In this document: positions 4,696 to 13,742 of the stretch, piece by piece | Position numbering within the stretch: position 1 is the first letter of the stretch | How the letters are laid out: every line of letters starts with the position of its first letter | Source of the DNA: Neodothiora populina | Taxonomy: Eukaryota | Direction: 5' to 3' | DNA length: 64,000 nt | Assembly (NCBI RefSeq): GCF_041146345.1 | Contig: NW_027191405.1 | Coordinates: 1,116,001 to 1,180,000 of the forward strand | Notes under the pieces: model-generated | Told to the model about the DNA's origin: nothing | The model's database searches: none | What the model saw: only the letters and a program-made list of their open reading frames with translations | Translations under genes and position numbers: made by a program

Positions 4696-5321
4696 CTACG
4701 CAGAGAAGCCCAGACCTCTACACTCGTCGTCATCTCTCAGCGCAGCTCTGACGTCCTCTTGTCCGACCCCCAACCTGACCCTCGCCGTCCTCTCTCCCCT
4801 CCTGTTCTCTAAACCAATAATGCCCGCTTCTGACAACTCTGCCGCCGCAAACGCCATGCCTCTTATCCTGGCTGCTTTGTCGACGTCTTTGCGAGCGACT
4901 TGTCGACCTCTTTTGCCCGGCGTGCTGATGAGTGCACTATTACTATTCGTCGAGAGTGCGAACGTGCGATCAGGCGCCAAAAGGACTTCTTCGATGCCCT
5001 TGAGGTCGGACAGAACACTCATCCGTTTCGCCTCGTCCATGACGTCGCCCAGCACACTCTCGCCGATTCCAGTGCGGCGGATCCGAGCGAGTAAAGCTGC
5101 GAGAAAGAGTTTGGACGCCAGAGGTAAGGTCCGTAGGTATGCGGCCAGAGGCGTCGATGTGGCTTCGTTGATTGCTTTTTTGATCGTGGCGATGGTCACG
5201 ATGCCGCGCTTGCCTTTGACCATGTTGGTTAGGCCTGTTGCTCGGCCGGGGGTTTTGCTCGGTGTTCCGGGTACGAGGGCAGCGAGGTCGTCGTTGACGT
5301 TGTTATTCTCTTTGTTCGGGT

Positions 5322-5358
<37 letters not shown>

Positions 5359-7035
5359 CTCGGCCACTGCTTCTGCTTCGGCGATCTCGACTGCTCGTCT
5401 GCATACGTCTAGAGCTCGTCGCGCGTCTCCGCTCACGGCGGCTACTTTTCGACTCGCGAATTGCACGGCGTCTGGTTCCACTACTACTTGGCCTACGCCT
5501 TCTAGTCTGCTCTGGATGATCTTGATGAGTTGCTGATGCGTGTAGCCTGGGAATGTGATTCTTGTCAGGCCGAGTCGCGAACTGATCTTATTACTCAGTG
5601 TGCGCTCTGGCAAGTCCATTGTGTTGGCGACGGCAAGAACAATAAGCCGACTGTGTTTCAGCTGCGGCCAATTGAAAAAGTTGTACATGACGCCCTGACT
5701 GCGCGTCACGAGCTGATCGAGTTCGTCCATCAGTACGACACAAGGCACTCGTCTCGGCGAAGGTGTGGTGAATTCCTTCTCCAGAAGCTCGAGTGCATGC
5801 GAAGCGCTGACGCGTTGTCCCTTCAGTGCTTCCCAGAGCAGAGAGTATGACTGATGCGGATCGGTGACTTTCATACCGTTGATCTCAACAAAGACGAAAT
5901 CGTCTAATTCGTCGGCGCTGACGGCCACATTCAATGCGGCTACGACCTCGCGCACGGTCGCTGTCTTGCCTGTTCCCGGGGTACCAGAGATATAGATACA
6001 GGCGCCCGTGTTTGCTGCAATGGCTGCTTCGAGATGAGAATAAACGGTTGCGAATTCGTCTTCTCGGCATGGCAGGGCATGTGGCACCGCAGAGACATGT
6101 AGCGTGCTACGGGCCACTTGATGCGGGGAGGCTGTGTATGACGGCGCCAGCACTCTCGTACCAAGAGGCGTGAACTCAAGCGGTCTTTTAGCGTTGATGC
6201 GGCGATGGGAGGGAGTGGTCAGCAATTCCTTTTTCGAGGGGCTTTGGGTTTTCCGTTTCGAGGTCGGAGTCGAAGCTGTCGTCCTGCGACGTTTCCGGGG
6301 CGTGCTGAACTCGCCGTCTTGCTCGTCGTCGGTAGCGACAAAGTCATCCGGCTCGCGATATGGCGTTTTCGCCGGCCCTCTTCGTTTGCGAGTTGATGTC
6401 GTCTGCTTGTCGACCATTTCCACCAGTGACCCAAGGTCATCGGGTCCACGATAGATGTTCTCCCACGTAAATTCTTCGGTATAAGTAGTCGTCCTGGTGT
6501 TGCATCCGCGTCTGCAGACAAAGATCTTGCCATAGTCCTTGGAAGTCTTTGCCACCTTGCCACTGGGATAGCGAGCATTGAAGACATCAGGAGACAGCAC
6601 GGTAGCCTTTCCATTGATAGTAGAAAGCGAGTTGTCATCGGTGCCAGTAGTGATGTACAGCTCATTAGGCAAGAAATCAGTTCTCTTCTTGTTCTTGTTC
6701 ACGATTTCCTTCTCCGACGAGAACCACATGAAAGTGGCTTTCTTGTCCATGACCATCTCGCCGTCTTCGTCTTCCAGCTCGCCATCTGACAACTCGCATA
6801 TAATGGCCACCCATGCCTCGTTACCCGCGGCTTTCAGCAAGACCGTGTCTCCGACTCGACACTCAAAGGAGCCCATCCTGGCGCCCACGATTTCGCTTGC
6901 CGTGTCATTGTATATCCATTCCCAGGGGTGGTCTTCGTGTCCGAGTTCGTCGTCGGAGTCTTCTCTGACTACACCGCCTCCTTGCAGGTAGTGTCTGGCC
7001 TCGTCGATCTTGGACCTCTTTTTCTTCTGCGCCAT
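4696..7035 (-). CDS. ORC1: Origin recognition complex subunit 1 (BAH + AAA+)
   Basis: N-terminal BAH-like region, LPCREDEF, YISGTPGTGKT Walker A, VLMDELD Walker B, ANTMDLPER, VSGDARRALD. Confidence 0.95.
5323..5358. repeat. (GGC)12 microsatellite encoding a poly-Ala tract in ORC1
   Basis: Perfect GGC run seen directly; reads as GCC (Ala) codons on the minus strand. Confidence 0.9.
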
Positions 7036-10440: not shown

Positions 10441-11513
10441 ACTCTCGCTGCTCGATTTACGCTGTATGATAGTGGCAGTACAAGATCAGGTACGCTGTGG
10501 ATTGCGAGTTTTGGACGACCATCGAAATCAGAGAAGGTACAGATGTCATGTATGAAGAAATGACAGTCATTAAGGTAGCTGGATGCAAGTGAACGTGTGT
10601 TGAAGACAAGTGAGTGTGAGCATGTTTTTCCAAATCGACAAACAACAGTCGTGCCTTCCCTTTCGCTACATGGGCTGCAGAGCGGAGAGACGGAATCCAT
10701 ACCTTACCTCTGCTCAATCTAAACTATGCAATGCACCGTACAGCACATATTCATTGGTAGCGCAGCCAACTTGTTTTGTTGTCTGTCAAGGATGTGTTTT
10801 GTTGATGGATATCCTACCTGCACCTGACCGTGCCATACTCAATGCATGCACTGTACTTTTGGTCCTCTTAAACTACCTTAGGTTTCACATATGAATGGAA
10901 TACAAAGGTTGCTCCGTTGCCGAGTGACTAGGGTAGCACAGCGTGCGGACTTTCATCCGCGTAGAGATAGGCTTGGGCGAATACATATAAGGCATCCCAT
11001 CGCGAAGCTGCCTGCTATGACATTGAGCAATGATCAATCGAGCCATCTGTTGATATTTATCGCCTCAATATACCGTATGCATAAGATCGATGGGAGGCGC
11101 CAGCCCCGCCGCTTGAAATTCAAATGTCCCAAGATATGGCACGTTTCTTGTACCAAGTGCGGCTACTCGTCGATTCAAAAGTGATCATTGATAGGGCGTA
11201 CGCTTGGGCGCGGCGAAGCACATGATAGGATTCCCGGCGGGGCCAAAGTTTGGAAACGCTAACCCGCATGTAGCCACCGACAACGCCGAATGCGCGCACA
11301 AGTGCAAGACAAGTGAGCGAATATATCACACCGAAGGCCATCAAACTCGCTTGGAATTGGCACTATGTGGCGGTTAGAGTATGTGGAAATTAATCCAAGA
11401 GCACAATAAATTATAGACTGGTTTTTCCGGGAGTGGAAATGGAGTGAATCGGTGGTGGAATCGGATCATTATTCTGAAGGAACGATAGCGGCCTGCATGG
11501 CAGTTTTAGCGTG

Positions 11514-11520
11514 TGACTCA
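11514..11520. promoter_or_regulatory. Gcn4/CpcA binding element (CPRE) TGACTCA upstream of cpcA
   Basis: GTGACTCAC, a perfect AP-1/Gcn4 site about 135 nt upstream of uORF1. Confidence 0.65.
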
Positions 11521-11654
11521 CACTCTCAACCCCAATCGAGGCTGCCGAATTTCGCTGGTTTAAGAAGCCGCCTTCCCCTCCTCCATTTTTCTGATTTTCT
11601 CCATTCATCAAAGCACACTAAACATACAAAACACAACGCCATATCACATTCAAG

Positions 11655-11666
11655 ATGGCGGCCTAA
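11655..11666 (+). promoter_or_regulatory. cpcA uORF1 (MAA*)
   Basis: CAAG-ATG GCG GCC TAA in strong context; a 3-codon uORF1 is typical of GCN4/cpc-1 leaders. Confidence 0.85.
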
Positions 11667-11814
11667 ATACCAGCATCATAACGTCTTATCAGTCAATATC
11701 GTCTTCAACCATACCTCTAGAGCATAAGCTCTCGAGTTCAGCCTTAGGCATCAGTCCCCGCGACTCTTCCACGTTGACATTCTATTCGCCCGTCACGGCA
11801 TCCAACCAGCAACC

Positions 11815-11952
11815 ATGGCCTCCTCTAACACCAGTACCACGGCAAAAGCCATCAGCTTCCTATCAAGACTTCCAACTGTTCGGGATACCTCCTGCTCAAC
11901 AGTATCCTCAGCGCGTTCCATCGCTCGCTTCGAGGCTTCCTCGTACGTCTAA
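11815..11952 (+). promoter_or_regulatory. cpcA uORF2 (45 aa, out of frame, presumed inhibitory)
   Basis: ACC-ATG-G start; MASSNTSTTAKAISFLSRLPTVRDTSCSTVSSARSIARFEASSYV*; stops 100 nt before the main ATG. Confidence 0.8.
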
Positions 11953-12052
11953 TTTGACTACACCCGGTAACGCTCATTCTGCGTCACGTCTACATCGCCC
12001 ACACCATCGATTTATTCCACCTGTGCCTTTGTTCGATCAAACCATCGACGTA

Positions 12053-12820
12053 ATGGCTGCAAATGTTGCATACGACGGTACCCATGCCGACCTTGGCATG
12101 GGTAGCCGTACATCTTTCCTGAACAGCAACGCCGATTTGTCTTTGTTCGACTCGGACGACATGTTCAGCTTCACCCCTGTGAACGAGACTGCCACTGCCC
12201 CTTCGACAGTCTCTCCAAAGGATGTTTTCATGGAGAGCATGAGCTCGGTTCCTTCTTCCTCGGCCTTCCCGGAGCTTACTCCTGGCTCCGAGATGCTCGC
12301 GACACCCGATACCTCTCCCTGGTTCACCGACAACCTCACCACTGGCGGTGACAACTACAGTTTCCCTCTTTTCCCGGATGCGGGCAACGATGACTTTGGT
12401 GACTTGACATCTTTCACTCCTTCGACGAAGCGCAGTGATTCGTCCACCTTACAGGTTGTCATTGCCGAGGCTCAGGAAACTCGTAAAGCATCTTCAGCTA
12501 GCATGTCTCCTATGGTTTCCGCGCTCAAGCACACTTCTTCCGCTGGCATCCGCAAGAGGCAGAAGCCTCTTCCTGCAATTGTTGTCGACTCTACCGATCC
12601 TATTGCTCTCAAGCGTGCTCGCAACACTGCTGCTGCTCGCAAGTCTCGTGAGAGGAAAGAGGCTCACCGTGACTCGCTTGAGTCGCGCATCGCCGAACTC
12701 GAGGCACTTCTCGAGCAACGTGATGCCGAGATCGCAACCTTGAAGGCTCAGACTTCGGCGAAGGATCCCTATGGTCTTTCTGAGCTGAGCTCTTTGGATG
12801 CCTTCAACAACACCAACTGA
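12053..12820 (+). CDS. cpcA: bZIP cross-pathway control activator CpcA/Cpc-1/Gcn4
   Basis: TVSPKD and FPLFP activation-domain motifs; KPLPAIVVD..DPIALKRARNTAAARKSRERK basic region plus leucine zipper; uORF-containing leader. Confidence 0.93.
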   Translation: MAANVAYDGTHADLGMGSRTSFLNSNADLSLFDSDDMFSFTPVNETATAPSTVSPKDVFMESMSSVPSSSAFPELTPGSEMLATPDTSPWFTDNLTTGGDNYSFPLFPDAGNDDFGDLTSFTPSTKRSDSSTLQVVIAEAQETRKASSASMSPMVSALKHTSSAGIRKRQKPLPAIVVDSTDPIALKRARNTAAARKSRERKEAHRDSLESRIAELEALLEQRDAEIATLKAQTSAKDPYGLSELSSLDAFNNTN

Positions 12821-13742
12821 GGGAAGCTCTTTGTATGTTTTTGTGCTTTGCCCACAAGTCTGCCCCCTTCTTATTGCTTGATATGATTTCCCGTCCTTAC
12901 CTGCCCCCGAAAAGTTGCTTATGATGCTGGTACTGCTCTACTCCTGTTGTGTTGTAAGGAGGTCTCCTCCTTTTCTTTTACTGCCGGTTCTGTAGTCTCC
13001 CGTCCTTTGGACGGTGATTTGACTCGTGGCTCTTTTCTAGTTTTAGTATACTCATACTCAATCATCAACCAATTGGTTTTCTAAAGATTTGTATGCCAGT
13101 TCTTCCGTCTATTGTGTTCAAGTGGTGATCATGATCGCACGACATGGTAGTCATTGTCGGATTTGTACGGCAGTTTGACGCCGATCTCGGACATAGCCTG
13201 TTTATAGGTGTGTATCTGCTGCTCAACGACCAGTGTACCAATAGTAGCCCTCACCAGTGATAGTGCGATGAGCAGGGAGCAACCTGTAGCGAGAAAGCTT
13301 ATTTGGACCGGCACGCCCTGTGACTTCCGTATCCTAACATGTCTATAACGACAAGTATAGGGATGCACGCCACAGACACTGTGTCGCTGCGATATGATCA
13401 GTCGATCATACCTTGATGTCTGCGTTGCACTGTTGCCTGTCGCTGCTTTGCGCCCTGTAATGCCTCGATTAGGCAAGTGCTTTATCTGTTGTGCGTGTGT
13501 TTGAGTATCAGTCAAGAGACAAGCGTCGAAGTGAGCCTTGAGGGTTGGCATATAAAGAACAAGAGATTGGCATTTATCTGCACATGTTCCATTGAAGTAG
13601 ACTCTCCTGTGCTCTTCACTCGTCAAGAACCTTGTCCTCCTGAAACGACCAAGTACTTATTATCCCACTATAAATCCAACGTGCAATCCCGACCCAAACT
13701 CCCCTTTTATCATCTCCCAAAAGAAAGCAAAAGAAAGCAAAA

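Follow-up and report, generated by a model that had tools for sequence, protein, structure and literature searches.

Introduction

The cpc-1 leaders of 100 Pezizomycotina were described by Ivanov et al. (2017; PMC5487733). They contain two uORFs and an open stretch of no fewer than 160 codons. A near-cognate ACG codon, NCC8, is conserved in 98 of the 100. In this set uORF1 spans 3-6 codons and uORF2 35-70 codons (PMC5487733). In Neurospora, NCC5-8, including NCC8, initiate in vitro, and main-frame footprints occur between uORF2 and the AUG; in vivo, the activity of non-AUG reporters was below 1% of the AUG level (PMC5487733). The authors located initiation between uORF1 and uORF2 and found that the main frame dominates when the whole of uORF2 is considered (PMC5487733). 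Their work was also the subject of a commentary (PMC5676045).

The nearest studied Dothideomycete leader is that of Leptosphaeria maculans cpcA, whose uORF2 peptide is similar to that of Aspergillus (PMC3199737). The available part of that paper reports neither a non-AUG extension nor a frame test. Saccharomyces cerevisiae GCN4 encodes a homologous bZIP protein and likewise places a permissive uORF ahead of an inhibitory one, but it differs in that there are four uORFs, all short, and the leader lacks an in-frame extension (PMC5487733).

Here we describe the anatomy, conservation and frame-specific selection of a cpcA leader from Neodothiora populina, found in a stretch of 64,000 nt (the window). 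Judged by its sequence, the leader is of the published Pezizomycotina cpc-1 type and adds one species to the set of about 100. With a probability of roughly 0.7, we read it as a standard leader of this type, in which a 341-aa CpcA would start at ACG 11795 and escape uORF2. What goes beyond the literature searched is evidence for selection on the uORF2 peptide, both near its C-terminal end and in an internal Arg-Leu.

Results and Discussion

The locus and its open leader

The bZIP region of the 255-aa ORF matches Pfam bZIP_2 (E 2.4e-8) and GCN4 in the PDB (E 1.3e-7), and GCN4 chains are its only relatives of solved structure in the PDB. Its own genome yields a single match to the protein. The best named matches are Dothideomycete proteins annotated 'General control protein' or 'Cross-pathway control protein A', from which the source is probably itself a Dothideomycete. 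By these sequence matches the gene is cpc-1/cpcA, a GCN4/CPC1 bZIP homologue.

As the sequence-only reading had reported, the leader frame is open for 163 codons, from 11564, after a TAA at 11561-63, up to the ATG at 12053. It contains no in-frame ATG. A stop-free leader arose in 219 of 20,000 dinucleotide shuffles and in 48 of 20,000 mononucleotide shuffles. The features of the locus are collected in Table 1.

Table 1. Features of the cpcA locus, with positions counted from the first letter of the window
Feature	Position	Strand	Remarks
GCRE/CPRE TGACTCA	11514..11520	+	likely autoregulation site, judging from the available parts of PMC5487733 and PMC3199737
Stop-free, AUG-free in-frame leader	11564..12052	+	163 codons; 50% identity to the extended relative P0011 over 158 aa
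ACG 11636 and ATT 11648, candidates of the sequence-only reading	11636..11650	+	in frame, 5' of uORF1, not conserved
uORF1, MAA-stop	11655..11666	+	+1 frame; 4 codons with stop; good AUG context; reinitiation-permissive by analogy to PMC5487733
Six in-frame near-cognates with a -3 purine	11675..11776	+	between uORF1 and NCC8; possible minor starts; ATC 11675, ATA 11678, ACG 11681, ATA 11711, ATC 11750, TTG 11774
Conserved ACG, NCC8 orthologue	11795..11797	+	G at both -3 and +4; uAUG2 lies 20 nt downstream; predicted main non-AUG start
uORF2	11815..11952	+	-1 frame; 45 aa plus stop (46 codons, 138 nt); inhibitory by analogy; overlaps the extension
YQDFQLF	11861..11881	+	main frame; overlaps the invariant uORF2 Arg-Leu (11866-11871); both frames constrained
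uORF2 C-terminus, ARFEASSYV-stop	11923..11952	+	conserved as peptide in the uORF2 frame
PPVPLF	12017..12034	+	strong purifying selection in the main frame
cpc-1/cpcA main ORF	12053..12820	+	255 aa; C-terminal GCN4-type bZIP; intron not required

The leader shares several features with the published set, namely uORF lengths of 4 and 46 codons that fall within the reported ranges, the -1 frame of uORF2, a main frame open for 160 codons or more, a conserved ACG-G before uORF2 and conserved patches in the extension (PMC5487733). Like the window, Leptosphaeria maculans has an intronless gene with an upstream CPRE TGACTCA, a short uORF1 starting MAA and a long uORF2, which measures 159 bp there versus 138 nt in the window (PMC3199737). 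The TGACTCA element of the window lies 141 nt from uAUG1, compared with 125-193 nt in the 18 relatives for which the element is listed, and it is probably upstream of the transcription start. An ATG at 11497 opens a 77-codon ORF 5' of the element and is probably outside the mRNA.

One RNA run yielded a single contig of 247 nt at 12771-13017 and no coverage of the leader. We considered an intron in the leader or across the main AUG. Donor-like words are present, but the only AGs in 11930-12125 are those at 11933 and 12104, and splicing to 12104 was rejected because the conserved PPVPLF and NVAYDGT would be deleted.

Relatives of the leader

A metagenome scan gave 55 loci, 42 of which contain the full leader and form 21 clusters at 85% identity. 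Among the 13 loci left out, 12 end before the full leader, and the remaining one (L056) consists of a lone bZIP fragment that follows another gene. The relatives are 38-47% identical to the window in the main protein and 31-42% in the extension. When the extension was used as the sole protein query, P0011 was the only accepted match. A match to P0121, an unrelated protein of 1,818 aa, was driven by repeats and was discarded.

The relatives vary in how much of the leader lies open. Seven open leaders fall below the minimum of 160 codons in Ivanov et al.: L003 (138 codons), L007 (152), L018 (155), L002 and L011 (158 each), and L021 and L023 (159 each). In most relatives, about 25-35 residues separate the start of PPVPLF from the AUG, after which the protein begins with MGGG and an intron follows. 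In the corresponding region of the window (12035-12064) this distance is 12 residues, the protein starts MAANVAY, and an intron is absent. P0002-P0010 begin with MAANVAY as well, and L003 is shortened in a similar way.

The frame of uORF1 also varies. It is the main frame in 15 of the 21 relative clusters (L002, L003, L007, L008, L011, L012, L015-L018, L021, L022, L045, L046 and L053), where one stop, variably TAG, TAA or TGA, stands between the uORF1 AUG and the whole extension. In the remaining six clusters it is +1 or +2. Readthrough of the uORF1 stop as a route to the extension is impossible in the window, where uORF1 is in the +1 frame.

The start codon of the extension

An in-frame ACG-G precedes uAUG2 in all 42 relatives (21 clusters), at a distance of 20 nt in 39 loci and of 17 nt in three. 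These contexts agree with the NCC8 column in the available part of PMC5487733. From this conservation, the start of the extension is probably ACG 11795, located between uORF1 and uORF2. Initiation there is predicted to give an 86-aa extension and an isoform of 341 aa. This extension is the shortest of 22, the others ranging from 91 to 166 aa, which could reflect partial decay.

At position -3 of NCC8 the window has G, whereas 20 of the 21 relative clusters have A and one (L003) has C. P0011 has the same Val before the ACG as the window, so the -3 G is probably a lineage trait. The published list, as far as available, includes one case of G, Claviceps paspali, against the typical A (PMC5487733). 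An A at this position is typical rather than defining, and the G of the window is still a purine. The window has no in-frame CTG between uORF1 and uORF2 and hence no NCC6; many Dothideomycete rows in PMC5487733 likewise have NCC8 only.

The sequence-only reading had instead proposed starts 5' of uORF1, and its claims of conserved near-cognate starts in Neurospora and other Pezizomycotina leaders and of a coding extension without an AUG have held up, the first in print (PMC5487733) and the second, together with the cpcA identity, through the bZIP matches, conservation and selection. Its two candidates, ACG 11636 (-3 A, +4 C) and ATT 11648 (-3 C, +4 C), are indeed in frame and are two of the 17 near-cognate codons that this frame holds upstream of uORF2. 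A main long isoform begun at either would carry 139 or 135 additional residues and bypass both uORFs. The A at -3 of ACG 11636 favors such a start, and both codons are probably inside the mRNA, since 17 of 18 short spliced-looking relative contigs, taken as transcripts by inference, begin 20-108 nt before uAUG1. P0011, the nearest extended protein, is likewise open 5' of uORF1 and has Ile opposite ATT 11648, but it has Gln opposite ACG 11636, and the +4 C speaks against both codons. The uORF1 stop closes the main frame in 15 of the 21 clusters, so that nothing 5' of uORF1 can extend CpcA in them. In-frame stops in close relatives were what the sequence-only reading had itself named as evidence against it, and for a start upstream of the uORFs the uORF1 stop is such a stop in these 15 clusters, which are not very close relatives. 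None of the six open clusters has a near-cognate codon at -19 or -7 from uAUG1. The 99 nt before uORF1 have a dN/dS of 0.94 and contain 10 main-frame stops over 22 leaders.

Among 10,000 shuffled sequences, the segment 11564-11653 had no stop in 5,461, and 11603-11653 contained at least one in-frame near-cognate with a -3 A in 6,560 of 10,000 and an ACG with a -3 A in 936 of 10,000. ACG 11636 and ATT 11648 are therefore no more than expected by chance. In Neurospora, the four 5'-most near-cognates (NCC1-4) gave no detectable product in the experiments available from PMC5487733. We consider a main start 5' of uORF1 very unlikely, although some leaky initiation may occur at these codons. The proposed length of about 139 aa is probably wrong, as the conserved ACG 11795 gives 86 aa. 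The long isoform would still escape uORF2, as had been suggested, but its start is probably downstream of uORF1 rather than upstream of both uORFs. The codon to test is thus corrected to ACG 11795.

For translation, start use and regulation we reason from Neurospora. By this analogy, uORF1 would be translated and scanning would then resume. In fed cells most ribosomes would reinitiate at uORF2 and be lost to the main ORF, while under starvation, with eIF2-alpha phosphorylated, more would arrive at AUG 12053. A minority would initiate at near-cognates between uORF1 and uORF2, chiefly at ACG 11795, and would read the main frame through uORF2. The product would be CpcA with 86 additional residues that include the hydrophobic motifs DFxLF and PPVPLF. 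Such an isoform would escape uORF2 yet start downstream of uORF1.

Selection in the main frame

Main-frame dN/dS was determined from nine pairs of relatives, the window not being among them. It falls along the leader from 0.94 in the 99 nt before uORF1 to 0.66 between uORF1 and NCC8, 0.42 in the uORF2 overlap and 0.39 between the uORF2 stop and the main AUG, and it is 0.14 in the main ORF. The other frames gave values of 0.97-1.62 in the uORF2 overlap and in the segment from the uORF2 stop to the main AUG. In the same two segments, 27 of 29 internal indels are multiples of 3.

Over 22 leaders, the main frame has 10 stops before uORF1, against 20 in the +1 and 13 in the +2 frame; between uORF1 and NCC8 the counts, in this order, are 0, 43 and 18. 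After uORF2 the counts are 0, 27 and 32, where the zero is partly by construction because the loci were anchored on an in-frame PPVPLF.

Both motifs that had been noticed in the extension, YQDFQLF and PPVPLF, are present, and the alignment of leaders proposed along with them confirmed main-frame selection at DFxLF and PPVPLF. Between the window and its relatives, 73 of the changes in PPVPLF are synonymous and 7 non-synonymous. Parsimony on a tree of 20 leaders gives, for the first, second and third main-frame codon positions, 4, 0 and 41 steps in PPVPLF and 5, 3 and 18 in DFxLF. The xxLF-type motifs of the extension appear similar to the hydrophobic clusters in the activation domain of Gcn4. 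Our best guess is that these two motifs would add a coactivator contact. The five-codon patch and the proline-rich patch of Ivanov et al. are probably DFxLF and PPVPLF, respectively, as far as can be told from the available part of PMC5487733.

Two other explanations concern how, or whether, this frame is translated. Ribosomes could reach the main frame chiefly through a +1 frameshift out of uORF2 (AUG 11815), perhaps close to the conserved uORF2 end, and so produce an AUG-initiated fusion, a possibility named by Ivanov et al. (PMC5487733). The constant -1 frame of uORF2, found in 43 of 43 leaders, would allow this, and selection passes from the uORF2 frame at 11921-11952 to the main frame downstream. 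Yet main-frame selection is already seen at DFxLF, upstream of the uORF2 end, the ACG that precedes uAUG2 does not vary, and conserved structure is absent at the uORF2 end. These points make frameshifting an improbable main route. The extension of this lineage might instead be a remnant in decay whose frame is open through descent and which is hardly translated. It is the shortest of 22, the segment after PPVPLF is mostly lost, NCC8 has G at -3, and the sub-1% in vivo reporter activity in Neurospora (PMC5487733) would also fit. Against decay, both motifs are intact and their differences from the relatives are mostly synonymous, the ACG-G is preserved at its distance of 20 nt, and P0011 retains the open frame and both motifs. 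We therefore judge decay unlikely and prefer initiation at ACG 11795.

Selection on the uORF2 peptide

The last nine codons of uORF2 show the reverse pattern from the two motifs. Over 10 disjoint pairs, reading in the uORF2 frame gives 26 synonymous versus 14 non-synonymous changes, while the main frame gives 4 and 32, respectively; the region was picked after inspection, and the pairs, which were selected manually, are not completely independent of one another. When 46 windows were scanned in each of the two frames, selection switched frame at 11921-11956 (p 1.4e-5; p 8.9e-8 when the uORF2 stop codon is included). Over the last 10 uORF2 codons, parsimony steps at the three uORF2 codon positions number 17, 6 and 42. 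The R and V of the C-terminus are invariant in the 20 leaders that show the signal. L051 and L053, which represent the two most distant clusters, do not have the C-terminal motif, and the C-terminus tests exclude them.

Constraint from the uORF2 frame is also visible within the main-frame motif. The Gln before DFxLF is encoded by CAA in 11 of 11 cases (background 22 of 73) and its Asp by GAC in 22 of 22 (background 210 of 296). These fixed codons keep the Arg-Leu of uORF2. The sequence comparisons support the dual coding that had been suggested for the uORF2 region: selection acts in the main frame at DFxLF and PPVPLF, and in the uORF2 frame at the nine codons before the uORF2 stop.

RNA structure as the cause of this conservation was rejected: RNAalifold predicted 0 pairs at the uORF2 end, and the two Rfam matches were both far below the gathering scores. 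A short linear RNA motif may still play a part. A profile of 20 uORF2 peptides, with a query of only 45 aa, found none of 1,965 candidates at E <= 10.

The frame switch hints, from alignment data, at a uORF2 peptide whose sequence matters. Arrest peptides and other conserved-peptide uORFs include the Neurospora arg-2 AAP, and ribosomes queue at AZIN1. As in the window, such uORFs are conserved in the last residues before their stop and have a near-cognate start upstream. A difference is that the motif is missing in L051 and L053. We tentatively suggest, as a rather doubtful extension of the reading above, that in these fungi uORF2 might be more than a passive decoy and encode a regulatory peptide whose C-terminus, AR-F-D/E-AA-x-F/Y-V-stop, would slow termination, so that a ribosome queue would raise initiation at the ACG 20 nt upstream of uAUG2. 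If so, the element that represses the short CpcA would promote the long isoform, and both frames of one stretch would be under protein-level selection. If the selection reflects stalling, it would also offer a testable answer to a question raised by the work of Ivanov et al., namely what makes use of the non-AUG region increase under starvation and in what way this is coupled to the uORFs.

Selection on the last nine uORF2 codons in their own frame, in the window and its relatives, differs from the main-frame dominance over the whole of uORF2 in the available part of PMC5487733. The literature searched, which included few subscription papers, yielded nothing on frame-specific selection at the C-terminal end of uORF2, and the available parts of PMC5487733, PMC5676045, PMC3199737, PMC5972666, PMC11550727 and PMC13004512 contain no frame switch at the uORF2 end. 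The available parts of PMC12345223, PMC13004512 and PMC11550727 contain nothing on a non-AUG extension.

Other observations

The lone Gcn4-like bZIP fragment of L056 (1900-2138) directly follows a C2H2 zinc-finger ORF. It lacks the cpc-1 leader and N-terminal part and is possibly a gene remnant. Elsewhere in the window, an ORF of 779 aa on the minus strand (4696-7035) resembles Orc1, judged by eye from an N-terminal BAH-like region and an AAA+ P-loop.
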